A program made the position numbers and the translations under genes. Below, piece after piece: positions 9,407 to 60,710 of a stretch of DNA of 64,000 nucleotides. Source of the DNA: a virus. The DNA lies in the IMG/VR virus record IMGVR_UViG_3300037109_000068, positions 1 to 64,000 of that record; one strand, 5' to 3'. Each line of letters begins with the position of its first letter. Within the stretch, counting starts at the first letter, position 1. The notes below the pieces were generated by a model, which was given only the letters and a program-made list of their open reading frames with translations, did no database searches and was not told the origin of the DNA.

Positions 9407-9433
9407 TTTTTAATTTTTTAATGTTAAATAAAT

Positions 9434-9536: not shown

Positions 9537-9538
9537 AA

Positions 9539-11528: not shown

Positions 11529-11600
11529 TTAGTTAAAAATTAATGATTAAAAAGTAAAAACCCAGATAAAATGAATTACACAATATCTGGGTTTTTTGTT

Positions 11601-12410: not shown

Positions 12411-12597
12411 ACGTTTTAAAATTTTAAATTAATAATATTAAATTAAGTTCACTGTCAAAGCCAGGTTGCATTAAGCAGAGCCTGGCTTCTTCAAACAAAA
12501 CAACTAACTAATTAACCAACTTTTAAACCAATTACCATGAAAAACAAATATAACAATTATTTTTTAGCATTAAAATTTATTTTCAAAAAAGAATAAA

Positions 12598-12816
12598 TTA
12601 TTTACGAAGTTTTTCCAAATCCTCAATAGACATCTCTCTTAATTGACCATCTTGCTTTTCGGCAATTAAAGCATCAATTTTTTGATTATGTGCCTTATTA
12701 TCGGCAGCATTTCGTAATTCTTCATTTTCTTTCTTATTGGTGAGGTAGACATCTTTAAGAATATCAAATCTTAATTGATTTTCAACATCTACAGTGCTAC
12801 TACCCACTGCGAACAC
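12598..12816 (-). CDS. hypothetical coiled-coil protein
   Basis: 72-aa ORF between queE and the paralog gene. Confidence 0.35.
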   Translation of the reverse strand: MFAVGSSTVDVENQLRFDILKDVYLTNKKENEELRNAADNKAHNQKIDALIAEKQDGQLREMSIEDLEKLRK

Positions 12817-12842
12817 CCAAGTTGCAAGAGCATTTCTAACTA

Positions 12843-13463
12843 TTATTTAAACCCTGCAAATTTATGCATTTGAATTGAAAGTTTCCAACCTGGATTATTC
12901 TTTACAAATTCAACCGCACCTTTAATATTTTCCGTACTTTCCTTTGTATATGGATTCATAAAAATTATTGGAGAGATATAATATTCATCTGCACCTGAAA
13001 TGCTTCGTATATTTGGAAGATTAAGATTTTTGCTATCAAAAGGAAATCTAAATTCTCCACAAAATCCATCTTTAAAATCAGAATGCAATTGATCTAAATC
13101 TTTTGGAGAACAAGAAATATAATCAAATTGAAATGGTAAACTTATTGTGCCATTTGTCTCCAATAATTGAGCATAATTATCTTCAAAAAATTCACAAATT
13201 TCCTCAGTTAATTGTAAAAGAGGTTCTCCGCCTGTCCAAATGATATTCAAACATTTATATTTACTAATTTCATCCAAAATTTCCTCTACTGTCATTTCTT
13301 TATAAGCTACCCATTCAGTGTCACAGAAATCACAAGATAAATTGCATCCAGCAAGTCGAATAAATATAGCAGGCATTCCAGTATTAAATCCTTCTCCCTG
13401 TATGGAAAAAAAGATCTCATTTACTTTAAGCTTCATAACGTGCAGAAGTTTTATCGGTTTCAC
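12843..13463 (-). CDS. queE: 7-carboxy-7-deazaguanine synthase QueE (radical SAM)
   Basis: CNLSCDFCDT (CxxxCxxC) and GGEPLL motif. Confidence 0.85.
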   Translation of the reverse strand: MKPIKLLHVMKLKVNEIFFSIQGEGFNTGMPAIFIRLAGCNLSCDFCDTEWVAYKEMTVEEILDEISKYKCLNIIWTGGEPLLQLTEEICEFFEDNYAQLLETNGTISLPFQFDYISCSPKDLDQLHSDFKDGFCGEFRFPFDSKNLNLPNIRSISGADEYYISPIIFMNPYTKESTENIKGAVEFVKNNPGWKLSIQMHKFAGFK

Positions 13464-13821
13464 TAACTGTTACAGCATTTATTTTTATACCATCTCGATA
13501 TAGATCTGGTAGAAGTTCTTTGCATTTAATAAAGATTACACGTGCCATGTTTTCGGCAGTAGGATTACATAAAGATTCATTTGTAATGAAATATTGACCA
13601 TCATTTAAATCTTTATGGTCAAAAGTTTCATCAATCCATTTTTTAATAGGTTCAAGTCGTCTGTAATCAAAAACCATTCCAACACTATCTAAAATGTTTG
13701 AAACTAATTCTACGGTCACTTTATAATTATGACCATGAAACGTTGAACAAGGGTGATCCTCAGGCAATCTCCGAAGATGATGCCCTGCACTGAAATGAAA
13801 TTCTTTACTAATGGTATACAT
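13426..13821 (-). CDS. queD: 6-carboxy-5,6,7,8-tetrahydropterin synthase QueD
   Basis: FSAGHHL, CSTFHGHNYKV, and ETxxT-like end SETDKTSARYE. Confidence 0.9.
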   Translation of the reverse strand: MYTISKEFHFSAGHHLRRLPEDHPCSTFHGHNYKVTVELVSNILDSVGMVFDYRRLEPIKKWIDETFDHKDLNDGQYFITNESLCNPTAENMARVIFIKCKELLPDLYRDGIKINAVTVSETDKTSARYEA

Positions 13822-16795: not shown

Positions 16796-16969
16796 AGATT
16801 AGAAGTTTAAAATAGGAAACCCAATGATTTCAGCGGTGCCGCGCTTACTTTCACTGGGTCCTATCCTTAATTACTTATATTTTGCTAGATATGGCACTAT
16901 CTATTGTTTTAATCAGAAAACAAATATAAAAAACAATTTTATTACTTCCAAATAAATTATTAGTATTTT

Positions 16970-19299: not shown

Positions 19300-20892
19300 T
19301 TATAAATATTCCTGCATTAATTCTATTAATAAAGATTCATTTTCAGTTTCTATTCCATCTGTAATAGCATCAACTATCTTTCTTTTTGCATCAAGCAATT
19401 CTGCTATTTTTTCCTCGATGGTATTTATTGCAATTGCATAATAGATATTTACTCCTCTTAATTGACCAATCCTATGAATTCTATCTTCCATTTGATCCAT
19501 CTTTTTTGGACTCCAACCTAATTCTACTACAAGCATATTACTTGCTGCTGTTAAGGTAATACCAACTCCTCCAGCCATCAAATTTACAATAAATAATTTA
19601 GTATTCAAATCATTTTGAAAGGAATCAATCGCTTCCTGTCTTTTTGTCCCAGTTACTGAACCATCAAGTTTTACTGCTATTTTTGGAAATGATTCGATCA
19701 ATTGATTTATTACAAAGGTATGTGTGGTGACAATTACTAGTTTTCCTTCAGTTTCAAGATAATCCTCAACCCATTTAACGACTCCATTTAATTTACCTTG
19801 AACTGCAAATTGTTTTAATCCTTCTGTTCTTGCTTTTGCATTTAGGAAAGCTTTTGAATCAATTAAATGACCATTGACTAAATTTGCTTTTACAAATGAT
19901 TTGTAATCTGCTTCTGCTTTTGAATATTCTTTTCTATTTTCTAATTCAATTGGAACAATCGTTCTTATTTTTGCAGGTAATTCCGGCAAGACATCTTTTT
20001 TAAGCCTGCGCAGCATTATTGGAATAAGTTTTTTATGTAATTCCTCTGTCTTCATTGATCCTTTAAAATTCCAACCATACCTATCTTTTTTAGGATCACA
20101 ATATTTCCATATAAAATCCCATTGGTCAGGGAATATCGTTGGATCAACAAAGTTTATAGTATTAAATAATTCATATGGATGGTTTTCTACAGGTGTTCCT
20201 GTTAAAGCAAGTCGATGTGGTACATTTTTTTTAAGTTTCCTTATTGCAGACATTCGTTTTGTTGAACTATTTTTTATGAAATGAGCCTCATCAAGTATCA
20301 TTATTTTAAATTCTTGTTTGAGTAATTCCTTTGTCCAATATGTCAATATATCATAATTGATTATAATAACATTCCCTATTATTTTTGAAGGTTTTTCCCC
20401 ATTTAAAATTTGAATATGTGGAACAGGATTCATCCAGTTTTTAATTTCTCTTGCCCAATTTATTTTTACTGATGAAGGTTCTATAATAAGAGCAGGACGG
20501 ATTTCTGGATGCAATTGTAAATAAGCAATTGCCTCAATAGTTTTTCCTAAACCTTGTTCATCTGCGATTAAACAACAACCATTATGTTGCTCGATAAATT
20601 GCACACCAATATTTTGAAATGATCGAAGTGTGCCTTTTAAACCGGGAACTGTATATTTTTCATCAATATTATTTAAAAGGAATGTTTCAAGTCGCTTATC
20701 AATGATAAAATTCCAATCCATTACTTTTTTCAAATTTTCCTTAGTAAGAGGTGTAGACCAACAATCAATACTACTATGATAATTTCTAATAGTAAGTGTT
20801 TTCATATTGGCAATATCCTTCTTATTAGAAGGAAACTTCATTTTGATTAATTTCCTCCCATTAGCGTCTTTTGCAAGTGTGGCAGTTTTCAT
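19300..20892 (-). CDS. SNF2-family helicase/ATPase
   Basis: Motif I ADEQGLGKT, motif II ILDEAH, motif VI QMEDRIHRIGQ. Confidence 0.9.
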   Translation of the reverse strand: MKTATLAKDANGRKLIKMKFPSNKKDIANMKTLTIRNYHSSIDCWSTPLTKENLKKVMDWNFIIDKRLETFLLNNIDEKYTVPGLKGTLRSFQNIGVQFIEQHNGCCLIADEQGLGKTIEAIAYLQLHPEIRPALIIEPSSVKINWAREIKNWMNPVPHIQILNGEKPSKIIGNVIIINYDILTYWTKELLKQEFKIMILDEAHFIKNSSTKRMSAIRKLKKNVPHRLALTGTPVENHPYELFNTINFVDPTIFPDQWDFIWKYCDPKKDRYGWNFKGSMKTEELHKKLIPIMLRRLKKDVLPELPAKIRTIVPIELENRKEYSKAEADYKSFVKANLVNGHLIDSKAFLNAKARTEGLKQFAVQGKLNGVVKWVEDYLETEGKLVIVTTHTFVINQLIESFPKIAVKLDGSVTGTKRQEAIDSFQNDLNTKLFIVNLMAGGVGITLTAASNMLVVELGWSPKKMDQMEDRIHRIGQLRGVNIYYAIAINTIEEKIAELLDAKRKIVDAITDGIETENESLLIELMQEYL

Positions 20893-20911
20893 TTGAGATA
20901 AAATTTAATTT

Positions 20912-21073
20912 TTAGTAAATTGTTCTGATACATTCACTAATTGTTTTCACTGTGAGATAATGGCTTGCTGCATATTCAAAATGCTTTGCAACCATAATGT
21001 TTACATCTTTTATATTGTTACCGTCAGCAATTAACTTTGCAATTACTTTGTTTTTTAATTCTTGTTTTGTCAT
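20912..21073 (-). CDS. small hypothetical protein (53 aa, below the ORF-track cutoff)
   Basis: ATG at 21073 overlaps the upstream stop (ATGA). MTKQELKNKVIAKLIADGNN... fills an otherwise empty gap. Confidence 0.4.
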   Translation of the reverse strand: MTKQELKNKVIAKLIADGNNIKDVNIMVAKHFEYAASHYLTVKTISECIRTIY

Positions 21074-21393
21074 TCTATTTTCCTCCTTACTACTTTTCTT
21101 GTTTTAATCTTTTCCATTATTAATTGATATTTTTCTGTATATCTAGGATTTTTACGTCTTAGAATAGTATAGAACATCTCATTTTCTTTTATGAGAAATG
21201 GCCGGTCTCTTAACGACACATCAGTAGGAAACAATGATAATACTAATTCCTCAGATAATGTGTTAACTTTTCCGTTGAAATACTCGAGGAAAGACACATG
21301 TTCATTTTCAAAAAGTGCATTTATCTCACACTTTTTAAATGTATCTTTCCAAACATAATCTTTGTTAGGTGTCGCTTTTACTAGATATTTCAT
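21070..21393 (-). CDS. hypothetical protein
   Basis: 107-aa ORF overlapping the upstream gene stop. Confidence 0.45.
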   Translation of the reverse strand: MKYLVKATPNKDYVWKDTFKKCEINALFENEHVSFLEYFNGKVNTLSEELVLSLFPTDVSLRDRPFLIKENEMFYTILRRKNPRYTEKYQLIMEKIKTRKVVRRKIE

Positions 21394-22109
21394 TCAATAC
21401 TCCTATATTGGTTTACTTTTTTAATGAATGTAAAGTACTGTTGAGCATAGTTATTATCTTCATGCGTTTCCTTTACTTGCTTTTCGAACTGAATGAGGTT
21501 ACCTCGAAAACATCCACAGACAACTTGTATATCATTATCACTTGTCCAATAGACAGTGGTTTGTGCATTTCTTGATTCAATTTTTGGTGAAACCAAACGT
21601 TGTGGATTTTCCTTATAGTCTCTGCAATATGTACAACCTGTGCAATCTCTGCAACCTGTACAACCTCTGCAATCTCTGCAATATGTACAATCTATGCAAC
21701 CTGTGCAACCTGTGCAATCTCTGCAATATGTACAATCTATGCAATCTATGCAATCTCTGCAACCTGTACAACCTCTGCAATCTATGCAATCTATGCAATC
21801 TCTGCAATCTCTGCAATATGTACAATCTATGCAACCTGTGCAATCTCTGCAATATGTACAATCTATGCAATCTATGCAATCTCTGCAATCTATGCAATCT
21901 CTGCAACCTGTACAACCTCTGCAATCTATGCAATCTATGCAATCTCTGCAACCTGTACAACCTCTGCAATCTCTGCAATATGTACAATCTATGCAATATG
22001 TACAATTAATTAACGTTAGACTTTTCTGCGTTGCAGAGTCTTCTGTTTCGTAATATGCATTCCACTTATTGCCTTTTTCATCAATAAAAAATTCATTTTC
22101 TTTTTTCAT
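21390..22109 (-). CDS. Cys-x-x triplet-repeat protein (43 consecutive CXX units) with a globular C-terminal domain
   Basis: Residues 36-164 consist only of CTY/CID/CRD/CRG/CTG triplets. Flanked by non-repetitive N- and C-terminal sequence and in an operon with its neighbours. Confidence 0.75.
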   Translation of the reverse strand: MKKENEFFIDEKGNKWNAYYETEDSATQKSLTLINCTYCIDCTYCRDCRGCTGCRDCIDCIDCRGCTGCRDCIDCRDCIDCIDCTYCRDCTGCIDCTYCRDCRDCIDCIDCRGCTGCRDCIDCIDCTYCRDCTGCTGCIDCTYCRDCRGCTGCRDCTGCTYCRDYKENPQRLVSPKIESRNAQTTVYWTSDNDIQVVCGCFRGNLIQFEKQVKETHEDNNYAQQYFTFIKKVNQYRSIE

Positions 22110-22312
22110 GATTTTTCAATTTTAGTTAGTAAACCTTTTTTCAATTTTCTTTGCAATATGCACTCATGCAAAGTATGGTGTAACTCATCATCTACGATGG
22201 TTTGCTCAGCTTTCTTTTTTGGAGTGATAAAATGCATCTTATTCCTTTTTAGGAATTTTGCAAGTTGTCTGCCTGTTAATCCTTCTGGTAAATGTAATTC
22301 AATTTTTTTCAT
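22106..22312 (-). CDS. hypothetical basic protein
   Basis: 68-aa ORF overlapping the downstream start. Confidence 0.4.
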   Translation of the reverse strand: MKKIELHLPEGLTGRQLAKFLKRNKMHFITPKKKAEQTIVDDELHHTLHECILQRKLKKGLLTKIEKS

Positions 22313-22316
22313 CTTT

Positions 22317-23219
22317 TTAGTTATTAATGGTTACATATTGCATTTTTGGAGTCTGTTCATCTGTATATTTTTTAAGAACATCAAATCCTGAGTTCATCAT
22401 TTCCATACCACCTGTCAACATTAAGTAATCCATTTTTTTAATAATGTCTTTTGGTGCAGTAATATGATTTGTATAACGTGTAATACCATTGAATAATGCC
22501 CAAATCGTTTTTCCTTGCTCATCAATAGATGTTTGCAAGGAATCTGAAAAATCTACAATTTTGTTTTTCTTTTGCGTAGAAATTTTACTTGTATCATCAT
22601 TTATATCAACTTTAAAGATTTTATTTAAAACTCTTTCTATTGCTTCATCTCGAATTGGAAGATCTGCCATCTGTTTGAATTTAACCATCAATAAATCATC
22701 TTTTGAGATTGTTTTTCTTAATTCTTCCTTTGCGACTTCAATCCTTTCTTTCATGGTTTTTGTATGTCTGAATTTTTGTACTTCACCGTAGGCTTGAAAG
22801 AATGTATTTTGACAAACCACGGTGGTATTAGCACTTCCAAATCCTACACTAATTGAGCCATCATGTGCATTTAAACACGTTACCCAACGTTTAATTTCTG
22901 AATTACCGATTATTTCCTTTGGCAATTCAGCTTGCAAATAAACCTTTTTACCAAATTTTAATTGACCGCCTTGTGTTAATTCAATATCTAATCCTTCAAT
23001 AGCATTGAGAAGGATCATTGCAAGTTCACTGTTTTGGAGAGGAACATAATTTTGACCTACGGTACCTAACCAAAAATTGTCACGTTTAAATATACCAAAG
23101 GATTCGGTAGGTAATACTAAACCATCATTATTTAACGCAGTTAATGGTTTCTTTTCTGCCGACCAATTTAGATCTGTTTTTTCAAGCAAATCAAAACATC
23201 TTTCTTCAATTGTATTCAT
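22317..23219 (-). CDS. DUF932-family (phage/plasmid-like) protein
   Basis: YVPLQNSE, LNAHDGS and VVCQNTF motifs. Start moved to MNTIEER, because the longer ORF runs into a tRNA-like element. Confidence 0.65.
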   Translation of the reverse strand: MNTIEERCFDLLEKTDLNWSAEKKPLTALNNDGLVLPTESFGIFKRDNFWLGTVGQNYVPLQNSELAMILLNAIEGLDIELTQGGQLKFGKKVYLQAELPKEIIGNSEIKRWVTCLNAHDGSISVGFGSANTTVVCQNTFFQAYGEVQKFRHTKTMKERIEVAKEELRKTISKDDLLMVKFKQMADLPIRDEAIERVLNKIFKVDINDDTSKISTQKKNKIVDFSDSLQTSIDEQGKTIWALFNGITRYTNHITAPKDIIKKMDYLMLTGGMEMMNSGFDVLKKYTDEQTPKMQYVTINN

Positions 23220-23246
23220 AGTTTTTAAATTAAGTGAATAAATTAG

Positions 23247-23314
23247 GGAATCTGGATGGATTCGAACCAACTACTGATGCGCCAGTTCCATGTCCTTATC
23301 TCTAAGGCAGACTC
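23247..23314 (-). other. degenerate tRNA-like element (T-arm and acceptor present, no canonical anticodon arm)
   Basis: Minus strand: GAGTCTG...GTTGGTTCGAATCCATC CAGATTC C. The D-region forms CCTTA-GAGA-TAAGG. Only ACTG/CAGT with a 6-nt loop is found where the anticodon arm should be. Confidence 0.3.
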
Positions 23315-23323
23315 CAAGTATTT

Positions 23324-23704
23324 TTACAATTCGATTAATTTAGTTGAACAATCAAAGTGAATAGTTACACCGCTATATGTAGAATAGTGGCCTTTGTCTT
23401 TTGATTCAGTGTATCCTACTTTTATTACATGAGGAAGCTTTTTAATTTTTTCCTTTTGTGTTGGAGTAATTCCATTATATCCAAGTTTCATTCTAATAAC
23501 TCCATTTTTTCGATTGTCAATAAAACAAAAACCAGCTTCACTTCCAAGAATTTGTTCAATCCTTTGTCTGATAGGACTTTTTTTGGATTCATTTTCTGTA
23601 GATGTAGAAAATTCAGGAAACAAATGATCTAATGCTTTTTCTGCTTCTGGAAAAACATTATATGTATACATTAATTCATTTCTTGTACAAATATATTTTT
23701 TCAT
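23324..23704 (-). CDS. hypothetical protein
   Basis: 126-aa ORF with its start 33 nt downstream of hairpin copy 1. Confidence 0.5.
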   Translation of the reverse strand: MKKYICTRNELMYTYNVFPEAEKALDHLFPEFSTSTENESKKSPIRQRIEQILGSEAGFCFIDNRKNGVIRMKLGYNGITPTQKEKIKKLPHVIKVGYTESKDKGHYSTYSGVTIHFDCSTKLIEL

Positions 23705-23736
23705 ATCATTAAAGTTTAATTGTTTTTACTACGAAA

Positions 23737-23762
23737 ACCACGTAACCTCTCGACTACGTGGT
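23737..23762 (-). repeat. conserved GNRA-capped hairpin, copy 1 (terminator-like)
   Basis: Minus strand ACCACGTA-G-TC-GAGA-GG-T-TACGTGGT followed by TTTC. Confidence 0.7.
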
Positions 23763-23912
23763 AATAATATTATATGTTTTAATAGTTTGTAGGGCAGATT
23801 TTACTCACGTGGTAAAACAACAAGATACCAATAACCACTTAGCCCACATAATACACCATCCTTTCTTTTTGTAAGTAACTCCTTATTAAAGTTAACCATT
23901 TTTACCAACAAA

Positions 23913-23938
23913 ACCACATAACCTTTCGATTATGTGGT
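23913..23938 (-). repeat. conserved GNRA-capped hairpin, copy 2
   Basis: Minus strand ACCACATA-A-TC-GAAA-GG-T-TATGTGGT followed by TTTG. Stem G:C changed to A:T on both arms. Confidence 0.7.
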
Positions 23939-23961
23939 AAAATACGGGTAAAAATCGGTAT

Positions 23962-24420
23962 TTACTTTGCAAACTGATATATTCCTTTCTCGGTCACTTT
24001 TACCAGTTTTTCAAATTTATTGTATTTCGGGTTTTTACAATCTGTAAGCACCGTGGAAAGTGTTGAATCAGAAAGATGAGGAAGATTTTCTTTGCCAATT
24101 TCCATTAATTCCTTTTTTGTTTTGTTTCCTTTTTCAATAAATGGAGTCAAAACAGATACTAATGAAGGACCTTTTTCCTTTTTCACTGCGGATTGTTTTT
24201 CGGTTTTTTCCTTTTTCTCTTTGATAAATTTACCAACACTTTCGAAATCTTCAACTTTTAAAATTTCGATTTCTTCTTCTTCGTTTGCTTCAAATTCTGG
24301 ATCAATGTAAACGGTTGACACCTTTTTGATAGGTTTCTTTTCTTCTACATCGTCTTTTACCGGTTTCTGATTAGGTTTTACTACAACCTTGGCATTTGTT
24401 TTTCTTGCAATTGTTTTCAT
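23962..24420 (-). CDS. Lys/Glu-rich protein with the C-terminal TDCKNPKYN domain (paralog 2 of 3)
   Basis: C-terminus LTPFIEKGNKTKKEL...VLTDCKNPKYNKFEKLV aligns with 11601-12410 and 25746-26111. Confidence 0.6.
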   Translation of the reverse strand: MKTIARKTNAKVVVKPNQKPVKDDVEEKKPIKKVSTVYIDPEFEANEEEEIEILKVEDFESVGKFIKEKKEKTEKQSAVKKEKGPSLVSVLTPFIEKGNKTKKELMEIGKENLPHLSDSTLSTVLTDCKNPKYNKFEKLVKVTEKGIYQFAK

Positions 24421-24455
24421 GATTAAAAAGTTTAAAGTTAATAAATAAGAATGCT

Positions 24456-24638
24456 TTAATTAATTTTTTCAATACGAAGTATTTCTATTATTTTACGTAA
24501 ATGATCAATGATAAACACATAAAATAAAAGACAATCTCCAATAATAAGCTTTTGTTTTGCCTCTTCAAGAACCTTGTCTCTTTGTTCTTGATTCATACAT
24601 TTTTCATATTCCTTTTTGAAATAATCTAAGTTTTTCAT
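24456..24638 (-). CDS. small hypothetical early protein
   Basis: Start set at MKNLDYF. The longer MVLPVK... start lies inside hairpin copy 3. Confidence 0.4.
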   Translation of the reverse strand: MKNLDYFKKEYEKCMNQEQRDKVLEEAKQKLIIGDCLLFYVFIIDHLRKIIEILRIEKIN

Positions 24639-24672
24639 AGTATTTCCTTTTTTTATTGTTTTTACTGGCAAA

Positions 24673-24698
24673 ACCACGTAGCCTTTCGATTACGTGGT
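24673..24698 (-). repeat. conserved GNRA-capped hairpin, copy 3
   Basis: Minus strand ACCACGTA-A-TC-GAAA-GG-C-TACGTGGT followed by TTTGCCAGTAAAAA. Confidence 0.7.
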
Positions 24699-24724
24699 AA
24701 AATTGATTTATTTTAAATTCCTTT

Positions 24725-25003
24725 TTAAGGTTTAATAATTTTATGACAATTATAAGTATAATACGTAATAAAATAATTATTAGTTGAATCTACTACACTA
24801 TAATTATATGTATCAAGTGTAGTTTGATTATCATAAGGCATTAATACTTCTTTATTACTAATAGAAATTGTATCAATACCGTGCATCATAATTGTTTGCT
24901 CCGAACAATCCCAACAAAATTCCTCTTGTTTTATTTCTTCCTTTTTGCAATTAGTTACAAAAATCATAGAAAATAAAACAAGTGGTAAAATTAAATTTTT
25001 CAT
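24725..25003 (-). CDS. small lipoprotein (early gene)
   Basis: MKNLILPLVLFSMIFVTNC, then KKEE directly after the lipobox Cys. Confidence 0.55.
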   Translation of the reverse strand: MKNLILPLVLFSMIFVTNCKKEEIKQEEFCWDCSEQTIMMHGIDTISISNKEVLMPYDNQTTLDTYNYSVVDSTNNYFITYYTYNCHKIIKP

Positions 25004-25032
25004 GATATTCCTTTTTTGGTTTTACCAACAAA

Positions 25033-25058
25033 ACCAGGAAGCCTTTCGACTACCTGGT
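25033..25058 (-). repeat. conserved GNRA-capped hairpin, copy 4
   Basis: Minus strand ACCAGGTA-G-TC-GAAA-GG-C-TTCCTGGT. The C:G pair is flipped to G:C relative to the other copies. Confidence 0.65.
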
Positions 25059-25065
25059 AAAATTG

Positions 25066-25290
25066 TTAGCGTTTAAAATCATTCCAATTTGTATCAAATT
25101 GAATTATTCTCTCATTGTTTGAAAATAATTCATTGAATAATTTCTCTGCCTCAGCAAAAAGAGGTTCGTCAGTAGTTTTTGCAAGAAGTTCTTCATAAGC
25201 AACTTTTGCCTTTTTGTAGTTTTCAAGGTTAAGAATTCCTTTGTCATTTTTCTTAGCCCAAATTTGGAGATGAACGTTAAAGTATTTCAT
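25066..25290 (-). CDS. small hypothetical early protein
   Basis: 74-aa ORF. Confidence 0.4.
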   Translation of the reverse strand: MKYFNVHLQIWAKKNDKGILNLENYKKAKVAYEELLAKTTDEPLFAEAEKLFNELFSNNERIIQFDTNWNDFKR

Positions 25291-25418
25291 TTACTTTATC
25301 TAATAAAACTGTTAATTGAATAATGTTCATTTTTTCAAGGCAATCCTTTCTTATTATATTTGCCTTTTTTTGGATAAGTTGAATTAATTGAGTTTTCATA
25401 CAATAACAATTGGTTAAT

Positions 25419-25440
25419 ATGTGACAAATTTTTGTCACAT
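25419..25440. promoter_or_regulatory. perfect 22-bp palindrome (10-bp arms, 2-bp centre); candidate operator
   Basis: ATGTGACAAA TT TTTGTCACAT in an intergenic gap upstream of small minus-strand ORFs. Confidence 0.4.
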
Positions 25441-25463
25441 TTCGAATATTAAATTCTCATCAG

Positions 25464-25646
25464 TTAACCTTTTAATTTTGTAAACTCCAGATAAGCACCA
25501 GGTTTACTAATTTCAACCCTGTCTCCTATTTTATACCCATCTTGTTCTGCAAAAATAATAAACATATCATTTAAATAAATTCCAATACAGTTTTTATATG
25601 CCTTACAAGACGTTACATGAGGTAAAAGAACCTTTTTTGTTTTCAT
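25464..25646 (-). CDS. small hypothetical early protein
   Basis: Start set at MKTKKVLLP. The longer MVLPVK... start lies inside hairpin copy 5. Confidence 0.4.
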   Translation of the reverse strand: MKTKKVLLPHVTSCKAYKNCIGIYLNDMFIIFAEQDGYKIGDRVEISKPGAYLEFTKLKG

Positions 25647-25695
25647 GATATTTCCTTTTTTAGTGAATAAATATATTTCCTTTTTTACTGGCAAA

Positions 25696-25721
25696 ACCAC
25701 ATAACCTTGCGATTATGTGGT
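25696..25721 (-). repeat. conserved GNRA-capped hairpin, copy 5
   Basis: Minus strand ACCACATA-A-TC-GCAA-GG-T-TATGTGGT followed by TTTGCCAGTAAAAAA. Confidence 0.7.
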
Positions 25722-25745
25722 AAATTATATGTAATACAATACATG

Positions 25746-26111
25746 TTATGCGAATTTTAATGTGTTATTTTCCGTTTTTACAACAAGATGTGGAAATTTG
25801 TTGTATTTCGGATTTTTTGAATCAACAAGCAACGTTGTAACGGTAACGGGATTCACATTTTCAATTGATTCACAAGCAATCTTTGCTAATTGTTTTTGAT
25901 CGAATTGATTTGACTCAATTAAATCCGTTAAAAACGCTACGATTTGTTTACATGTTCCGTTTTTTTCAACTTTTTCTTTTTTTACCTTTTCAACAGGTAC
26001 AACGATTGCTTTTTCTTCGATTGTTTCAACAATTGTTGAAATTTTGGCATCATTGTTTATAACAACGATTTTCTTTGCCGATTTAACGACTTTTTTGTTT
26101 GCTTTTTTCAT
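25746..26111 (-). CDS. Lys-rich protein with the C-terminal xDSKNPKYN domain (paralog 3 of 3); first sizeable early gene
   Basis: C-terminus FLTDLIESNQFDQKQL...LLVDSKNPKYNKFPHLV aligns with the other two paralogs. Confidence 0.55.
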   Translation of the reverse strand: MKKANKKVVKSAKKIVVINNDAKISTIVETIEEKAIVVPVEKVKKEKVEKNGTCKQIVAFLTDLIESNQFDQKQLAKIACESIENVNPVTVTTLLVDSKNPKYNKFPHLVVKTENNTLKFA

Positions 26112-26202
26112 GGTTTTATGTTTTAAAATTGATTTAAATTGTGATGCATGTATTTTTGTACATGCATTTCGTCATAATTTTCAATGACTCATCAGACAAT
26201 TT

Positions 26203-26352
26203 TTAGAAACAATGCACAATATATGATGTATAATTAACAATACATAATGTTGCAAAAATAATTATTGTAAATGCTACAACATATTTTATTGATTTGTTTG
26301 AATTACGATTTGCATTTAATTTTGCGATTTGAATTTTCTGTGTAGTAGTCAT
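26203..26352 (-). CDS. possible 49-aa tail-anchored membrane peptide
   Basis: MTTTQKIQIAKLNANRNSNKSIKYVVAFTIIIFATLCIVNYTSYIVHCF. Below the ORF-track cutoff and has no clear RBS. Confidence 0.3.
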   Translation of the reverse strand: MTTTQKIQIAKLNANRNSNKSIKYVVAFTIIIFATLCIVNYTSYIVHCF

Positions 26353-27924
26353 GATTGAAAAGTTTTAAGTTAAATTAATAATTGATTGATTAAAAGTTTG
26401 AACATGTATTCCGATTCGACCGTATTTGCAACAAATAAAATATTGTCCAAAAAATACATGTTGTAAAAAAACATGAAAAAATTTATCACCACATTATTAT
26501 TTTGTTTCGTGGATTTTATTCGATTTTACATGTTGACCGGAAATCGAAAAAACGTTCGAGGTCTACGTCCTCTGCGTTGGTTGATATTTCGGAGTGATCA
26601 ACATCCGTTTTTCTATTCAGTAACGTTTTAGCACGGTTGAGAGATATCAGCAAACATCGTTTGCATTTTGTTAACGTGTAATACAATTCAATACTTAAAT
26701 ATCGGTATAATTAATTAATCGTCCAAATAAAAATACATCATAATTCATATATAGAATTTACCATACCTAAATAAACCATCAAAAGCAATCATTAATTAAA
26801 CGATATTAAAATAAATTCATATGTATTATATATAAAACAGCATAAAATATACGTGTAGTAATGCATGTATATGGCAATGGGATAATTATATGGAATGCAT
26901 AAAATATATATAACAGTACACATATGCATACACCACACTATATGACTACGTATCATTATACTACATACATATACCATACTATTAATCTAATATAATCATA
27001 TATAATAAAACAATCATAAAGTATACACAATACAATCAATATGCATATATAACATATGCATTGTACCATGCATGTATACACATATACACAACATAACATA
27101 TGTATGGTATAACATATAGCATACATAATATATACATATTAATAACATCATGTATATATCATTAATTATATATGTATTGATCATTACATATATGTATGGA
27201 TTAATCATGTGTATTGTATATAACATGCATTGTAATATGATAAAAAAAATTTGTGTGGAGGTGATTGATCGGTCGATTAAAAACATGTATACATGATTGT
27301 ACCATGCAATATATAATACATTGATAATCAATCATCATTTTGTCACATAAATTGTATTATGTTAAATAGGAATCAGTGCAGAATGATTAACATATTAATG
27401 ATCAACGAGATAGCGAAAACACGTTTGGCGCCTTGAGGTCAAAAAACGTGTCAGAGATACCCCCTCTATTAGATAGTATTTTTTTTGAATAATTAACCTT
27501 TCAGTAGTATAATTGAAATACTAAACACTTACTAACACAATAGTAAAATAGACAATGAATAGAATAATGGTAAATAATATAAAAAAGGAATTATGCATAT
27601 ATGTATTGTATATATACGTTATATTAGTTGTTTATAGTATACTTTTTAATTACTTTTTTAATACTTATGTATAAAGGCTGTTTATAGAATATAGTTTAAT
27701 ATAAAATTAATACGATTTCACCATTATACTAGAATATTAGAGGTAAAAAAAATTTATAAAAAAATTTTCTAGAATTTTGAATTGATTTTTTCGGTTCAAG
27801 AAGTAGTACGAATAATCTTTTATTACTGTGAATAGTATAGATTATTTGAAGTTAGGGAAAATATAAAAAGAGAAACTATTTAAGTAATTATAATAATTTT
27901 ATTGAGATAAAATTATTATAGGCT
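26353..27924. other. non-coding divergent control hub between the minus-strand early arm and the plus-strand late arm (promoters, possibly ori/pac)
   Basis: No credible ORF in 1.57 kb. The flanking genes diverge from it. Confidence 0.7.
26815..27335. repeat. low-complexity alternating purine/pyrimidine tract rich in ATGCAT/CATATG/GTATAC/ACATGT words
   Basis: For example, 27067-27090 is a perfect 24-nt Y-R alternation. ATGCAT recurs at least 7 times. Confidence 0.7.
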
Positions 27925-28602
27925 ATGGCAAGAAGACGTAAAAAAGACAAAACACCTGTACATAGAAATGTGATTACTAACACTCCAATAGTTAGTAGTG
28001 AAATGGCAGACCAAGAGAATACTAAAATTCTTGAAAAAATTGCCAATGGAACATACGCAAAGCCAGACACCCTTAAAAAACATGGAAACATTGAACCAAA
28101 GTTTAAGAATGATTTTATGCGCCAGGTATATTATCTAGCAAAGTTAGGAGCTAGGGATTGTGACATTGCACAATTTTTTGGGGTAGATATTACATGTATA
28201 GACCATTGGAAAACCAAAAACCTTGATTTTATGGAGGCCTTAAAAGAAGGCAAGTGGATGTTTGGATTTCGTGTTAGTGAAACATTAGGCAATCGGGCAC
28301 TAGGATATGATTATACAGAGGTGGAACATAGTCAACACGTAGATAGGTTTGGAGAAATTCGAAACTTAACGAAAGTTACACATAAACATATGGCGCCTGA
28401 CGTAACGGCAATTATATTCTTTTTGAAAAATAGGCATCGGGATTTATGGGCAGACGTTAACAAGACTGAAGTAGACGCAAGGTATCAAGTAGAACTATCC
28501 AAAAAGATGGATTTAACTATTCTTACAGAAGCAGAACAGAAAATGGTAAAAAGTATTGCTATAAAAAATATAAGTACAATCCATGGGGTCTCAGGTAATT
28601 GA
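27925..28602 (+). CDS. terS: terminase small subunit
   Basis: First late gene and overlaps the TerL start. HTH-like LGARDCDIAQFFGVDITCIDHW. Confidence 0.65.
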   Translation: MARRRKKDKTPVHRNVITNTPIVSSEMADQENTKILEKIANGTYAKPDTLKKHGNIEPKFKNDFMRQVYYLAKLGARDCDIAQFFGVDITCIDHWKTKNLDFMEALKEGKWMFGFRVSETLGNRALGYDYTEVEHSQHVDRFGEIRNLTKVTHKHMAPDVTAIIFFLKNRHRDLWADVNKTEVDARYQVELSKKMDLTILTEAEQKMVKSIAIKNISTIHGVSGN

Positions 28603-30121
28603 TAGAACATACGTAAAGAAGAAAGATACGAAAGAGGAAACTCTACAAAAGGTACTAGACAATCCTTTTGCAGTATTACTTTCTATGGGTGGACTATCAT
28701 TATATGAATTTATCCAGGTATTTTGGAATGAAATAGTCGAGGATGAATTTAAAACGAATTGGCATATTGAATATTTATGTAAGGAATTAGAGGAAATTGC
28801 AACACGTGTAGGAAACCACGAAAAGAAATTATACGATTTAATTATTAATATTCCACCAGGGACTACAAAAACTATTGTTTGCTCGATTATGTTTCCAGTG
28901 TGGTGTTGGACAAAATGGCCCTGGATGCGTTTTATTACAGGAAGCTATTCATCTGATTTATCTCTTGAAAGTGCTGAAAAAAGTCGAGACATTATGCGCT
29001 CCGACAAATTTGCTTTACTCTATCCAAATATCTTCATCAAAGAGGACAAGAATACTAAATCGAATTATCGTATTGCTATACGCGAATTAGATGAGGTTGG
29101 AAATAGACAACGAGTTGTATTTGGAGGAGGTCGGTTTTCAACTTCGGTAGGTGGAACCATTACAGGATTCCACGGACATATTAATATATGGGATGATCCA
29201 ATTAATCCAAAGCAAGCCGTCTCAGAGCCTATGTTAAATACGGCAAACAATTGGGTAGATCAGTCTGCAAGTACTCGTAAGGCTGATAAAGAAGTTTCAG
29301 TAACAATTATGGTAATGCAGCGTCTTCACCAAAAAGATCCAACAGGACATTTATTAGATAAGAAAGATAAAGTAATTCGACATATTTGCCTACCAGGTGA
29401 GATTCGAAATTATAAAGAACAATTAAATCCACCTGAATTAGCAAAATTTTATGTAGATGAATTACTTGACCCAATTCGCTTAAGTTGGAAATCACTAAAG
29501 GAAATGGAAGCGGATTTAGGCATATATGGATATGCAGGTCAAGTTGGGCAGCATCCAACACCACCCGGTGGAGGTATGTTTAAAGTGGGAAATTTTCAAA
29601 TTATAGATACTTTGCCTCATGAAATTAATTGGAATGCAAGAATGCGTTACTGGGATAAGGCTGGTACGGAAGGTGCAGGAAAGAGAACAGCAGGAGTAAA
29701 GATGATTAGACTCACAAATAATAAAGTAATTATTGTCGATGTTCGGAAAGGCCAATGGGCTGCAGAAAAGCGGGAACAAATTATAAAAGCAACGGCACAA
29801 GCAGATACAAGAGCATTTGAAATTGCAATAGAGCAAGAACCCGGATCTGGAGGAAAAGAATCAGCAGAAGCCACAACAAGAAATTTAGCAGGATTTGTAA
29901 TAAAAAAGGATTTGCCACATGGTGATAAAGTATATCGTGCAGAGCCTCTTGCAGTACAAGTAAATGAAGGCAATGTAATGCTTTTACGAGGTGAATGGAA
30001 TCATGACTTTATCGAAGAATTTCGGTTTTTTCCATTTGGAAATTTCAAAGATCAAGTAGATGCTACGTCAGCAGGATTTAATTTAATAATGCAACGAAGA
30101 ACAGCAAGGAGAATTACATAA
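28583..30121 (+). CDS. terL: terminase large subunit
   Basis: Walker A-like IPPGTTKT, Walker B HINIWDDP. Nuclease Asp motifs YWDKAG and DQVDATSAG. Confidence 0.9.
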   Translation: MGSQVIDRTYVKKKDTKEETLQKVLDNPFAVLLSMGGLSLYEFIQVFWNEIVEDEFKTNWHIEYLCKELEEIATRVGNHEKKLYDLIINIPPGTTKTIVCSIMFPVWCWTKWPWMRFITGSYSSDLSLESAEKSRDIMRSDKFALLYPNIFIKEDKNTKSNYRIAIRELDEVGNRQRVVFGGGRFSTSVGGTITGFHGHINIWDDPINPKQAVSEPMLNTANNWVDQSASTRKADKEVSVTIMVMQRLHQKDPTGHLLDKKDKVIRHICLPGEIRNYKEQLNPPELAKFYVDELLDPIRLSWKSLKEMEADLGIYGYAGQVGQHPTPPGGGMFKVGNFQIIDTLPHEINWNARMRYWDKAGTEGAGKRTAGVKMIRLTNNKVIIVDVRKGQWAAEKREQIIKATAQADTRAFEIAIEQEPGSGGKESAEATTRNLAGFVIKKDLPHGDKVYRAEPLAVQVNEGNVMLLRGEWNHDFIEEFRFFPFGNFKDQVDATSAGFNLIMQRRTARRIT

Positions 30122-34986: not shown

Positions 34987-35270
34987 ATGAAAACATTTAT
35001 TAAATGGTTTGCAGGATTTTTTGAGGATCAAAAAGGATCAGCCTCAAGTAAGAGAGGGACATTATATATTTGTTTCTTTTTTGGAGAATAATTGAATCCG
35101 ATTTACATGGCGTAAAATTACAAGATTCCAATATTCTTTATTTTGTGGTTGGTGTTATATTATTCTGCATAGGAGCGGTAACATCAGAATTTTTTACAAC
35201 CATAATTGGACAGAAAAAGGAAACATCAATTGAAATAAAAAAAGAAGAAACTAAGGAAGTAACACAATAA
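34987..35270 (+). CDS. small two-TM membrane protein apparently split by a -1 frame change in a T6 run
   Basis: ORF MKTFIKWFAGFFEDQKGSASSKRGTLYICFFFGE* (34987-35091) continues in the -1 frame as the track ORF 35070-35270. The junction is C TTT TTT G at 35076-35083. Confidence 0.35.
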
Positions 35271-36895: not shown

Positions 36896-38392
36896 ATGCC
36901 TAAAATTAAAAAAGAAAATTTAATACAAATTAATTTTCAAAATGATTCTTATCTAATTCGTGAAGAAACTTATCAAGGAAAGACTTATATAGTTGTTCCA
37001 GTAACAATGATGGTTGAAGGAGTTCATAATGGAAGTCATGGAGCTTTACTTCACACAATTGGTGATTTGGGTAGATTTCCGGCATCTTGGGACGGTATTC
37101 CAATTGTGATTGATCACCCGCAGGTTGACGGAATAAATGTCTCTGCTAATTCGCCAGACATCATAGAAGGAGTTGGTGTAGGTCAGGTGTTTGGAACAAA
37201 TGTTAATGGGTCACGGTTGAAAGCAGAAGCGTGGTTAGATAAAAATAAATTAGCTGAAGTTTCTCCAGAGGCTTATCAAATTATTGAAAATAAAGAAATG
37301 TTAGAAGTTTCAGTCGGAGTATTTACTGAAGATGAAGAAGTAAATGGGGATTGGAATGGAGAAAAATATAATGCTATAGCCAGAAATCACAGACCAGATC
37401 ATTTGGCTCTCTTGCCCGGCGGGACAGGTGCTTGTTCTGTTAAAGACGGTTGTGGGATTAGATTAAATAAGAAAGGAGGAGTTATAAAAATGAACAGAAA
37501 GAAAATTGTTCCAGAAGAGACATTATTTATGAAAATGCAGTCAAATAAATTAAATGAAGAAGCTGTATTTGATATTGTAGACAATTCTACTACTGGATTA
37601 ATGGAACAGATAAGTGAACTGCGAGATTTAATAAATACAATGGATACACAAGAGGAATCAAATTATTTAGAAGAAGTATATGATTCTTATCTTATTTATC
37701 AAAAGTATACTAAATCAAATGGTGAAAAAATCTATAAGCAGAATTTTCAAATGGATGCAGCATCAAATGAGTATGTATTAGTTGGAAATCCTGTTGAAGT
37801 AGAAAAGCAAATAAATTATGTAAATGTTAACAAGAGCGGGACGAAAATAACCCGTTTTAAAAAGGAGGTAAAAACAATGAGTGAAGAAAAAAAGACTCCT
37901 TGTGGGAATTGCATGGAAAAGGTTATTGCTATAATTAACAGCAATGAAACTACTTTCACCAAAGACGACAGGGAATGGTTGTTAGTACAGGAAGAAGCTA
38001 TTTTGGATAAATTGATGCCAAAAGTTGCTGAAGTTGTCGTTAATAAAGACAAAAAGGAAGCTGTTCAGATTACTGCTGAACAAGTAATCAATGCTCTTTC
38101 AGCAGAAGACAAAGCTGCTCTTTCTTATGGAAAGAAACAACTTGCTGAAAAACGTGCAACAATGATTAAAGGAATTCAGGACAATGTAGCAAAAGACACT
38201 TGGACTGAAGTGGAACTAAAAGCAATGGATGAAAATATTTTGGAAAAAATATTTAATTCTGTTAAAAAGGAAGAAGTAGCTGAACTTGTTGATTATTCTT
38301 TAATGAGTCAAGGAAGACACATTGATAATAACACGGAAGAAATCGAGCCATTACTTCCTACAGGAGTTGAATTTGATGTAATTAAAAAATAA
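36896..38392 (+). CDS. DUF2213-like prohead protease/scaffolding protein
   Basis: N-terminus YQGKTYIVVPVTMMVEGVHNG...WDGIPIVIDHP. Acidic coiled-coil C-terminal half. SD-like GAGGAGG upstream. Lies before the decoration and capsid genes. Confidence 0.55.
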   Translation: MPKIKKENLIQINFQNDSYLIREETYQGKTYIVVPVTMMVEGVHNGSHGALLHTIGDLGRFPASWDGIPIVIDHPQVDGINVSANSPDIIEGVGVGQVFGTNVNGSRLKAEAWLDKNKLAEVSPEAYQIIENKEMLEVSVGVFTEDEEVNGDWNGEKYNAIARNHRPDHLALLPGGTGACSVKDGCGIRLNKKGGVIKMNRKKIVPEETLFMKMQSNKLNEEAVFDIVDNSTTGLMEQISELRDLINTMDTQEESNYLEEVYDSYLIYQKYTKSNGEKIYKQNFQMDAASNEYVLVGNPVEVEKQINYVNVNKSGTKITRFKKEVKTMSEEKKTPCGNCMEKVIAIINSNETTFTKDDREWLLVQEEAILDKLMPKVAEVVVNKDKKEAVQITAEQVINALSAEDKAALSYGKKQLAEKRATMIKGIQDNVAKDTWTEVELKAMDENILEKIFNSVKKEEVAELVDYSLMSQGRHIDNNTEEIEPLLPTGVEFDVIKK

Positions 38393-60702: not shown

Positions 60703-60710
60703 AAAGAGTA

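Follow-up and report, generated by a model that had tools for sequence, protein, structure and literature searches.

The early genes of an uncultured Bacteroidota siphophage lie on a leftward polycistronic transcript that carries five copies of a short, cis-acting hairpin cassette. Most likely, the cassettes indicate the points at which early messages stop or undergo cleavage, because the same slots in related phages hold self-cleaving hammerhead ribozymes or tRNA-like elements. By the covariation of its stem pairs across these relatives, the hairpin is a conserved RNA structure. Tentatively, and with a little less than even confidence, we read the cassette as a leaky intrinsic terminator or a 3'-end-forming hairpin that would punctuate the early polycistronic RNA.

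The window, i.e., the whole stretch of 64,000 nucleotides that was analysed, was searched on both strands with the pattern ACCACRTANTCGNRAGGNTAYGTGGT, allowing up to three mismatches, and compared with 100 dinucleotide shuffles. Exactly five matches were found, all on the minus (coding) strand, where the shuffles gave an expectation of zero, which bears out the five minus-strand hairpins proposed in a sequence-only reading of this DNA. The copies are 87% identical to one another, and each folds into an 11-bp hairpin with a GNRA loop, as that reading had claimed (-11.5 to -14.3 kcal/mol, z = -4.4 to -6.8). Copy 1 (23720..23766, minus strand as for all features below; hairpin 23737-23762) has the loop GAGA and the tail UUUCGUAGUAAAAACAA, and its stem ends 32 nt before the ATG of a 126-aa gene. 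Copy 2 (23896..23942; hairpin 23913-23938; loop GAAA; tail UUUGUUGGUAAAAAUGG) lies 23 nt past the stop codon of a 152-aa gene, and the sole ORF that follows, a doubtful one of 32 aa, has its ATG 13 nt from the stem. Copy 3 (24656..24702; hairpin 24673-24698; loop GAAA) follows the stop of a 92-aa lipoprotein-like gene by 26 nt, and the next ATG is 34 nt on; pair 9 of its stem, the junction pair of the sequence-only reading, is an A.C mismatch. Copy 4 (25016..25062; hairpin 25033-25058; loop GAAA), which matches the pattern with three mismatches, follows the stop of a 74-aa gene by 7 nt, with the next ATG 29 nt on; one of its C:G pairs is flipped to G:C next to a U.U mismatch. Copy 5 (25679..25725; hairpin 25696-25721; loop GCAA) lies 24 nt past the stop of a 121-aa gene, and the next ATG is 49 nt on. 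The shared AAAAAGGAA(A)TA element described earlier does precede three of the downstream ATGs. The degenerate half-copy that had been noticed near 23803-23816 was found as well; it is a relic cassette, TTTTACCACGTGAGTAAAA (23799..23817), located between copies 2 and 1, which has kept the 5' flank, the first seven stem bases, and the tail, has lost the interior, and still matches the full copies exactly over 11 nt.

Two further proposals of the sequence-only reading hold in part. It had described stem changes as paired, but the mismatches of copies 3 and 4 show that not every stem is perfect. The structure had also been assigned to the minus strand exclusively, which goes too far: the plus-strand complements fold too, with 8-9-bp stems and -9.0 to -10.4 kcal/mol. 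The minus strand is nonetheless favoured by the U-run, by the wobble pairs, and by the shared direction of cassettes and genes.

The same architecture recurs in related uncultured phages, whose stems and loops have nothing in common with those of the window in sequence except that some loops are again GNRA. Among 18 distinct members from seven phage loci, 97.9% of the cells of the stem alignment pair, in comparison with only 33-48% in slid-alignment controls; 10 of the 11 pairs change on both sides, and none of 500 shuffles reached the observed covariation score. The wider alignment for which the sequence-only reading had called, and in which a lack of covariation would have spoken against it, therefore shows strong covariation of the stem. 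The loops, in turn, include UUCG, ACCA, UUUG, and 6-nt sequences besides GNRA, so the GNRA tetraloop, earlier taken as a conserved feature, is not essential.

The complete cassette comprises about 45 nt: an 11-bp stem with an ACC…GGU base, a UUU run, and a tail of the form NNNR-GU-RN-AAAC(A/C)A, in which the GU is fixed at +8/+9, i.e., 7 nt beyond the stem, though the length of the T-run varies. The earlier consensus, which ended at TTT(G/C), captured the hairpin but overlooked this 3' tail; in the window the conserved block reads TT-ACCA...UGG-UUUU(G/C)-NN(A/G)-GUAAAA. The stem measures 10-11 bp and has a CC/GG base and a stable loop (GNRA, UUCG) in every member, and the U-tract, with 4 U in the window copies and 3-5 U in the relatives, is flush with the stem and is followed by G/C-containing sequence. 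All 15 mapped members are intergenic, on the coding strand, and 5-38 nt past a stop codon. Several ways of explaining the flanks by further pairing or coding were considered and rejected. An outer helix TTTTAC/GTAAAA is contradicted by the variable 5' flank in four loci (L043, L047, L080, and L136), and pairing of the tail GGU with the stem ACC by two members, L049_7512 and L080, in which the stem base is altered and the tail still has GGU. A second hairpin, GUUUU...AAAAC, would consist of A-U pairs only and would overlap the base of the first stem, and the in-frame GTG ORFs that could make the tail coding in three copies are interrupted by stop codons in relatives.

A megablast search gave no match, and the best match of the DUF932 protein in cultured phages was below 30% identity, leaving no cultured close relative with a transcriptome. 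The exact-pattern scan of IMG/VR was empty, and that of a metagenome collection returned two matches, both generic intrinsic terminators after gene ends in unrelated bacteria; hence the cassette sequence family is, as far as these collections reach, private to a narrow clade. In a close IMG/VR relative (L001/L002), the contig breaks in repeats on either side of the early region, so that it adds no information. The small ORFs flanking the cassettes are ORFans without homologues in the loci of the relatives. The hairpin copies gave no match to Rfam 15, including the RAGATH motifs, at E <= 1 across 20000-30000, nor did the hairpin of copy 5 when the threshold was relaxed to E <= 10 around it.

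Two type-I hammerhead ribozyme candidates, absent from the sequence-only reading, are encoded in the same early region. HH-A (26136..26202) starts right past the stop of a 49-aa ORF and reads AAATTGT-CTGATGA-GTCAT[..]ATGAC-GAA-ATGCATGTA[..]TACATGCAT-C|ACAATTT; HH-B (25412..25469), whose stem I takes in the stop codon of a 60-aa gene, reads GGTTAA-CTGATGA-GAAT[..]ATTC-GAA-ATGTGACAA[..]TTGTCACAT-A|TTAACC. Both have a complete core (CUGAUGA...GAAA...UH), with stems I, II, and III of 6-7, 4-5, and 9 bp, respectively. The descriptor built on this fold gave 21 real matches versus none in shuffles, and the stems covary among relatives. Their Rfam scores are below the gathering thresholds, at 29.2 versus 56.3 bits for RAGATH-1 and at 27.0 versus 48.5 bits for the type III model, a permuted form with respect to type I.

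HH-A would belong to the same proposed punctuation system as the cassettes, though in a different slot. Among the relatives, L043, L047, and L136 have a hairpin cassette in the slot just past the stop of the DUF932 gene; L053, L054, and L057 have a hammerhead there, and L052, L055, L056, L059, L060, and L137 an armless tRNA-like module. The same three-way interchange is seen in relatives in the slot before the DUF932 ATG, and L049 has the same leader behind several cassettes and behind one tRNA-like module. Moreover, the leader after a hammerhead cleavage site or a tRNA-like module often starts with AAAC(A/C)AAU or UAACCAAU, resembling the 3' half of the cassette tail. A descriptor for the tRNA-like modules (acceptor-like stem plus T-arm, with a UUCRANY loop) found none at the five cassette sites, where the hairpins have no T-loop. 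The presence of hammerheads and tRNA-like modules in equivalent slots therefore supports a role of the cassettes in punctuating the early polycistronic RNA.

The anatomy of the cassette, with its GC-based stem, stable tetraloop, flush U-run, and position just past stop codons, is compatible with weak termination or attenuation, and likewise with processing; these were functions that the sequence-only reading had put forward. The terminator reading is also favoured by the slot exchanges, as hammerheads and tRNA-like modules are devices that form RNA ends, and by the two chance matches in the metagenome collection, which are ordinary terminators. Recognition of the loop by a specific protein, in the manner of boxB, is disfavoured by the differences among the loops of the relatives. 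Under the terminator reading, a polymerase leaving a small early gene would transcribe the 11-bp hairpin with its GC-rich base and then the UUU(U), which together would act as a weak intrinsic terminator. In intrinsic termination, RNA is released 7-9 nt past the stem; a fraction of the transcripts would accordingly end at the invariant GU, the hairpin would then shield the 3' end of the upstream message, and the remaining polymerases would read through into the next gene. With five serial cassettes and two hammerheads, the early region could in this way be divided into expression units one gene long, with expression graded from one to the next. We infer that the 3' ends arise by termination and not by cleavage, that only some transcripts terminate, and that the upstream RNA is stabilised by the hairpin. 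The stem and the next ATG are just 29-49 nt apart, and the host -7 box would need a TA that the cassettes do not have; transcription of the downstream genes must therefore come from read-through, so that the terminator would have to be leaky. A standard terminator scan (at least 5 T in 8) accepted only copy 2 of the five, and the clear operon-end terminators of the clade have long T-runs (60710-60732 in the window; a stem followed by T10 in L137). The short U-tract of the cassettes, 4 U and then G/C-containing sequence, argues against termination, and a plain terminator would leave the conservation of the tail (R-GU-R-N-AAAC) across fully diverged stems unexplained. In addition, the modules that replace the cassette cut RNA without stopping transcription, and thus point to processing rather than termination.

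In such a processing reading, the main rival, possible though doubtful in our view, a host RNase (e.g., of the RNase E/G, Y, or Z type) would recognise the 11-bp helix with the single-stranded UUU-NNNR-GU-R and cut within the tail. The cistrons would be separated as they are by hammerhead or tRNA-like modules in relatives, the upstream mRNA would keep the hairpin as a protective 3' cap, and the downstream one would begin near AAAC(A/C)AAU. Besides the three-way exchange around the DUF932 gene, the mixed arrangement in L049, and the likeness of the leaders to the tail, cleavage is favoured by the constancy of the stem length of about 11 bp and of the GU position despite diverged stems, which suggests a measuring enzyme. 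In L047 and L049, furthermore, the stems differ within the locus and the tail is common, so a conserved factor, probably from the host, may read the tail. However, the tail matches no known RNase consensus, cleavage would have no need of a flush U-run, a terminator hallmark, and the stem is too short for classical RNase III, which takes about two helical turns, roughly 20 bp. Neither a T-loop nor a CCA is present for recognition by RNase P/Z, and no phage RNase was recognised among the annotated genes. It seems rather unlikely that three unrelated RNA devices, evolutionarily interchangeable in the same intercistronic slots, constitute a modular 'mRNA punctuation' system in Bacteroidota phages, namely the self-cleaving hammerhead, the armless tRNA-like elbow, and the cassette as an 11-bp helix with a UUU-N4-GU tail; the division of labour that would go with it, in which the elbow is presumably cut by RNase P/Z and the cassette by a helix-measuring host nuclease, is equally conjectural. 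If this were true, the cassette would represent an RNase target not recognised before, specific in both sequence and structure, in bacteria of a phylum about whose RNA decay little is known.

The remaining explanations place the function elsewhere, or nowhere. The cassette could combine a terminator with a promoter in the manner of the promoter-early stem-loop (PeSL) cassettes of T4-type phages, a documented precedent (PMC2839356, PMC4122927); the hairpin would stop upstream transcription, the U-run (nGGTTTTG) would double as a degenerate Bacteroidota -7 box, and transcription would restart at the purine after the invariant GT. The window copies do read TGGTTTTG-N4-T-R, a 7/8 match to TAnnTTTG with Y(-1)R(+1) 5-6 nt later, and have a TTTA 21 nt upstream, at the place expected of the -33 TTTG; they also flank ORFans, and true terminator-promoter cassettes exist in L137, where the stem and T10 run into a perfect TACATTTG that lies 4 nt upstream of an ATG. 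This arrangement is nevertheless improbable for the cassettes, every one of which has the invariant stem GG at the place where a -7 box would have TA. The TTTG is missing in copy 1, L047b, L049_7512, and L080, and the -33-like TTTA in L043, L047, L080, and L136. The phage's own perfect boxes are different (TATATTTG at 16928, 12552, and 35065, with TA), the hub that precedes the first early gene contains no tail motif without a hairpin, and scans for sigma70-type and Bacteroidota-type promoters showed no enrichment and nothing at the cassettes. A site for a trans-acting regulator appears still less credible, be it a nut-like loading site for antitermination (hairpin with a boxA-like or SD-like tail) or a ribosome, standby, or stabiliser site, either of which would time early expression. 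It would account for a tail conserved as sequence without covariation with the stem and for its SD-like form in several members (GGUGA, AGGUGA, GAGGUG, GGUGAU); GGTAAAAACAA occurs within the strong RBS AAGGAGGTAAAAACA-ATG ahead of gene 50287 and again at 37867, inside ORF 36896-38392, before an in-ORF ATG. SD-like 5' stabilisers and the early-RNA stabilisers of phage SP82 are precedents for a stabilising role. The variable loops, on the other hand, exclude recognition of the boxB type, and five loading sites within 2 kb would be unlike known antitermination systems. Pfam and PHROGs searches of about 45 proteins revealed no sigma factor, RNA polymerase, NusG-like protein, antiterminator, or RNase, and no N-like, Q-like, or other RNA-binding protein was recognised among the annotated genes, so that the phage antiterminator suggested in the sequence-only reading has no candidate. 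The p152/p121 paralogues, which are early proteins, and cold-shock-domain (CSD) proteins were considered as trans-factors and rejected, as they do not co-occur with the cassettes and the window has no CSD gene. Finally, a neutral or selfish repeat spread by duplication or recombination, with an incidental hairpin and no function in expression, is very improbable. The close identity of the window copies, the two identical copies of L136 inside an 84-nt repeat, the deleted relic, and the ORFan nature of the flanked genes would suit it, but compensatory change has maintained the structure across phages, stem length and tail are conserved, and the members are strictly on the coding strand and always intergenic just past stops.

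The expression signals of Bacteroidota phages are poorly characterised, and their hosts have unusual promoters, initiate translation mostly without a Shine-Dalgarno lead, and possess little-studied RNases. The cassette family provides a compact, conserved, and easily testable element on early transcripts. The favoured reading, if it amounts simply to a weak terminator, would be an ordinary finding; if the tail is a nuclease or pause signal, it would offer a new handle on termination or RNA processing in these bacteria, and engineers could make good use of it as an insulator part. The interchange of cassette, hammerhead, and tRNA-like module is a natural experiment on the purpose of enigmatic phage ribozymes, which may lie in cistron separation and end protection.

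Several known systems share single traits with the cassettes. Like ordinary intrinsic terminators, they have a GC-rich stem base, a stable tetraloop, and a flush U-run on the coding strand past a stop; unlike them, they have only 3-5 U, a conserved downstream tail, and five copies in series inside one operon. The RNase III sites of the T7 early region and the sites in SP82 early RNA are cut by host RNases, and the 3' hairpins that are left stabilise the messages; they too are conserved hairpins set several times between the early genes of a polycistronic phage transcript, but they span about 20 bp or more and are often bulged, in contrast to the 11-bp stem of the cassette. The lambda nut site, composed of boxA and the GNRA-like boxB hairpin, likewise places a small GNRA-type hairpin beside a conserved linear motif on early transcripts; the cassette differs in its variable loop, its five copies, the U-run after the hairpin, and the lack of a recognised N-like protein. 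In mitochondrial polycistronic transcripts, tRNAs between cistrons define the mRNA ends, and such structured intercistronic modules find a counterpart in the armless tRNA-like modules that the phage relatives use in the same slots, whereas the cassette itself has no T-loop, acceptor, discriminator, or CCA features. The closest precedents are the PeSL cassettes and the prophage genes flanked by hammerheads. In prophages, hammerhead ribozymes flank individual genes (Perreault et al. 2011, PMC3088659), and these intercistronic RNA elements apparently divide long phage transcripts into gene-length units; hammerheads are present in the early region described here and, in relatives, in the cassette slots, but the cassette is a plain hairpin without a catalytic core or a known self-cleaving fold. 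PeSLs are cassettes of about 100 bp with a consensus sigma70 promoter (Arbiol et al. 2010, PMC2839356; Comeau et al. 2014, PMC4122927). As in PeSLs, short conserved intergenic cassettes are repeated in an early hyperplastic region, a terminator or attenuator stem-loop is followed by the start of the next small ORFan, and the copies are similar enough to recombine, with a deleted relic here between two of them. The present cassettes differ from PeSLs in lacking a host-type TAnnTTTG promoter, in whose place they read nGGTTTTG, in the short distance of 29-49 nt from stem to ATG, in the Bacteroidota clade of their host, and in the tail with GU at +8/+9, which has not been described for PeSLs.

The five GNRA-capped hairpins that a sequence-only reading had placed at 23737-25721 are indeed there: its consensus, searched with up to three mismatches, matches the window exactly five times, always on the minus strand, and 100 shuffles produced no match by chance. 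All five fold into 11-bp hairpins capped by GNRA loops (-11.5 to -14.3 kcal/mol, z = -4.4 to -6.8); the stem of copy 3 contains an A.C mismatch and that of copy 4 a U.U mismatch. The idea that the structure works only as minus-strand RNA was too strict. The plus-strand complement keeps stems of 8-9 bp (-9.0 to -10.4 kcal/mol), and strand specificity therefore comes from the wobble pairs, the U-run and gene orientation, not from an all-or-none fold. The conserved block also outreaches the hairpin originally described, reading TT-ACCA..UGG-UUUU(G/C)-NN(A/G)-GUAAAA; we refer to hairpin, U-run and conserved tail together as the cassette. The reported degenerate half-copy is present (TTTTACCACGTGAGTAAAA at 23817..23799) but is actually a cassette minus its interior.

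The window comes from a tailed phage, as judged from gene annotation. Late genes (TerS, TerL, portal, tape-measure and others) run rightward from ~27.9 kb; the opposite arm, pointing leftward from ~26.35 kb, has small early genes first and then the replication module (DUF932, SNF2 helicase, primase-like, DnaB, PolA, clamp loader). A non-coding hub of 1.6 kb (26353-27924) separates these divergent arms; it is very AT-rich, with imperfect TATACATATG-like repeats, at ~26800-27350, and its early strand carries no perfect host-type promoter box. No cultured phage matches the window at the nucleotide level, and none is a close relative. TerL is ~38% identical to that of Croceibacter and Cellulophaga phages, and in species-representative genomes the relatives of DUF932 come only from Bacteroidota, namely a Flavobacteriales MAG, a Bacteroidetes MAG and Dyadobacter. 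As expected for Bacteroidota, 61 of 79 window genes have AT-rich leaders and no Shine-Dalgarno (SD) sequence. An SD core precedes 18 of the 79, likely high-expression late genes among them, and seven sites are near-perfect (AGGAGG to AAGGAGGT) at canonical spacing (36896, 38408, 38942, 48671 and 50287 on the plus strand, 1899 and 20912 on the minus strand); such a minority beside mostly SD-less leaders is unusual for a Bacteroidota-type phage. The replication module also encodes a complete 7-deazaguanine (queuosine-type) pathway (8405-13821 (-); Tgt/DpdA-like, QueF-like, GTP cyclohydrolase I, QueC, radical-SAM QueE and QueD/PTPS), which suggests phage DNA modification. At 21390-22109 (-) lies a gene for a 239-aa protein of tandem 9-nt (CxxCxxC-type, 'CRDCIDCTYC') repeats; comparable repeat genes are present in four loci of related uncultured phages (L001, L046, L049, L136), where metagenome assemblies break at the repeats. 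In many relatives a gene for a cold-shock-domain protein lies close to the terminase and portal genes (L002 5004-5174, L045 3515-3706, L049 3184-3378, L136 907-1122); the window phage has none.

The cassette matched no Rfam family. An exact-pattern scan of IMG/VR gave no match, and that of a metagenome collection only two, unrelated and each an ordinary intrinsic terminator past the end of a gene. Among relatives' loci retrieved via the DUF932 protein, the same architecture with unrelated stem sequences was found in L043/L044, L047, L049 and L136 (DUF932 identity 56-72%) and in L080 (39%). Examples are ACCCCGUUAGA-UUCG-UUUAACGGGGU-UUUGGUGGUGAAAACAA in L043, ACCUCACUAUU-GCAA-AAUAGUGAGGU-UUUGUCAGUGAAAACAA in L047, AGCUCAUUGGA-UUCG-UUCAAUGGGCU-UUUUAUGGUAUAAACAA in L049, AGCCGACAUC-GUAAAU-GAUGUCGGCU-UUUUUAGGUGAAAACAA in L080 and GCCUCGCUGUU-ACCA-AACAGCGGGGU-UUUGAGGUGCAAAAUA in L136. 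With the caveat that members were collected by tools that reward pairing, 97.3% of cells pair in a hand alignment of ten members, with both sides changing in 9 of 11 pairs, and 97.9% in a covariance-model alignment of 18 distinct members, with both sides changing in 10 of 11. The covariation score of these 18 (0.732 vs 0.228 in shuffles) was reached by none of 500 shuffles, and slid controls gave only 33-48% pairing. Neither the constant register, with ~11 bp abutting the U-run, nor the variety of the stems is a product of the search. Since loops vary across the family (GNRA, UUCG, ACCA, UUUG or 6 nt), the GNRA loop is a feature of stability and not of recognition.

What stays constant lies at the stem base and beyond. 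The base ACC..GGU is mostly kept among the 18 members (closing A-U in 15, and in 16 each for the two C-G pairs next to it). In the intact-tail set (n=17; A6 minus the L044 hit, which is truncated at its 3' end, and the weak hit L049:9820), all members carry the UUU run and a GU exactly 7 nt past the stem, and most keep an R-N-AAAC(A/C)A stretch. The tail GGU is unchanged where the stem base differs (L049_7512, L080), so the tail is read as sequence, unpaired with the stem. Stems vary even inside L047 and inside L049 while the tail is common, and this argues for a common reader of the tail, probably host-derived, rather than a phage-specific hairpin-binding protein.

All cassette members lie on the coding strand, 5-38 nt past a stop codon, and for most the next ATG follows 29-49 nt downstream. 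In the window, a cassette directly follows each of two paralogous early genes, encoding proteins of 152 aa (23962-24420 (-)) and 121 aa (25746-26111 (-)) that share a KNPKYNKF motif and 42% identity over the C-terminal 65 residues; L049 has a homologue as its first early gene. The paralogues match no family and show no overall correlation with cassette presence.

The same early region contains two type-I hammerhead ribozyme candidates, HH-A (26202..26136 (-)) and HH-B (25469..25412 (-)), in intergenic gaps, starting at or just past a stop codon. Both score under the Rfam gathering scores, with a perfect, complete core and three helices each. A hammerhead descriptor matched 21 times across the loci and never in shuffles, and stems II and III vary in a compensatory manner among relatives; covarying homologues of HH-A and HH-B are widespread in related phages. 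Hammerheads flanking single prophage genes were reported by Perreault et al. 2011, who proposed the cutting of long phage transcripts into mRNAs of gene length (PMC3088659).

Relatives carry a third module, an armless tRNA-like element with an acceptor-like stem of 5-7 bp, a linker of ~11 nt in which UGG is conserved, and an arm of 6-7 bp with the loop UUCGAUU or UUCGAAU. Its descriptor found 37 copies outside the window and one doubtful copy within it, vs 1 in shuffled sequence. The 37 are all on the coding strand, directly past stop codons in early operons (12 in L137, e.g., 3131-3175; L049 8826-8870; L052-L060, L068, L072, L090-L097). None was called by ARAGORN or Rfam; presumably these are substrates of RNase P/Z, and they look like an undescribed punctuation element. 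In the replication module, in the gap that separates the Tgt-like gene from the QueF-like one, window 9434-9536 (-) scores 40.6 bits with the Rfam tRNA model (gathering score 29), with good acceptor, D and T arms and a 47-nt insertion replacing the anticodon arm; it was not called by ARAGORN and may represent either a tRNA with an intron or a processing module of tRNA-like form.

Cassette, hammerhead and tRNA-like module occupy the same slots around DUF932. Past its stop codon there is a cassette in L043, L047 and L136, a hammerhead in L053, L054 and L057, and a tRNA-like module in L052, L055, L056, L059, L060 and L137; ahead of its ATG, a cassette in L047 and L136, a hammerhead in L052-L055, L057, L059, L060 and L068, and a tRNA-like module in L137. 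In L049 the same leader is preceded by cassettes and by one tRNA-like module. This three-way interchange in intercistronic slots appears to be new; a non-exhaustive search of the searchable literature returned no description of it.

In anatomy the cassette looks like a weak intrinsic terminator, with its GC-based stem, stable tetraloop, short flush U-run and place just past stop codons. Intrinsic terminators release RNA 7-9 nt past the stem, and the invariant GU falls at this distance. As the cassette brings no promoter for the downstream genes, termination would have to be partial, the rest of transcription reaching them. We therefore tentatively favour, at slightly below even chances, a leaky terminator, or a 3'-end-forming and 3'-protecting hairpin, that would punctuate and grade the early polycistron. 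Termination rather than cleavage is what we infer here; the main rival, an endonuclease site acting like the hammerheads and tRNA-like modules that the cassette replaces, is somewhat less likely. It is the better account of why the tail is conserved, why the helix keeps its length and why the slots interchange, and the poorer one of the flush U-run; no known RNase consensus fits it.

That the cassette is a compact version of the terminator-promoter of T4-type phages (promoter-early stem-loop, PeSL) seems improbable. The spacing to stop codon and ATG cannot fit a conventional promoter and leader, and the cassettes read nGGTTTTG, lacking the TA that is part of TAnnTTTG, the Bacteroidota -7 box. 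The clade shows the look of a true terminator-promoter cassette in L137, where a stem and T10 lead straight into a perfect box, TACATTTG, 4 nt ahead of an ATG. Perfect non-coding, co-directional boxes (TATATTTG) occur in the window at 16921-16952 (-) (box 16928, with an upstream TTTG), 12545-12552 (-) and 35065-35072 (+), and probably act as host-type promoters for middle and late genes; a strong long-T intrinsic terminator (60710-60732 (+), a 9-bp stem then TTTTTATTT) directly follows the last late gene. That a trans-factor or the ribosome loads at the cassette is a shade more doubtful still. Such a role would fit the SD-like tail of several members, and GGTAAAAACAA is contained in the strong RBS of gene 50287 and recurs at 37867, where an in-ORF ATG follows; neither window annotation nor co-occurrence in relatives yielded a trans-factor candidate. 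Set beside the covarying stems and the common tail, a functionless repeat is the most remote of these readings.

Among documented systems the PeSL cassette itself comes closest, likewise a repeated stem-loop unit (an attenuator there, a putative one here) that flanks early ORFans and is recombination-prone (PMC2839356, PMC4122927). The cassette described here differs from it in lacking a consensus promoter, in being far shorter, in having its own conserved tail and in belonging to phages of another host phylum.
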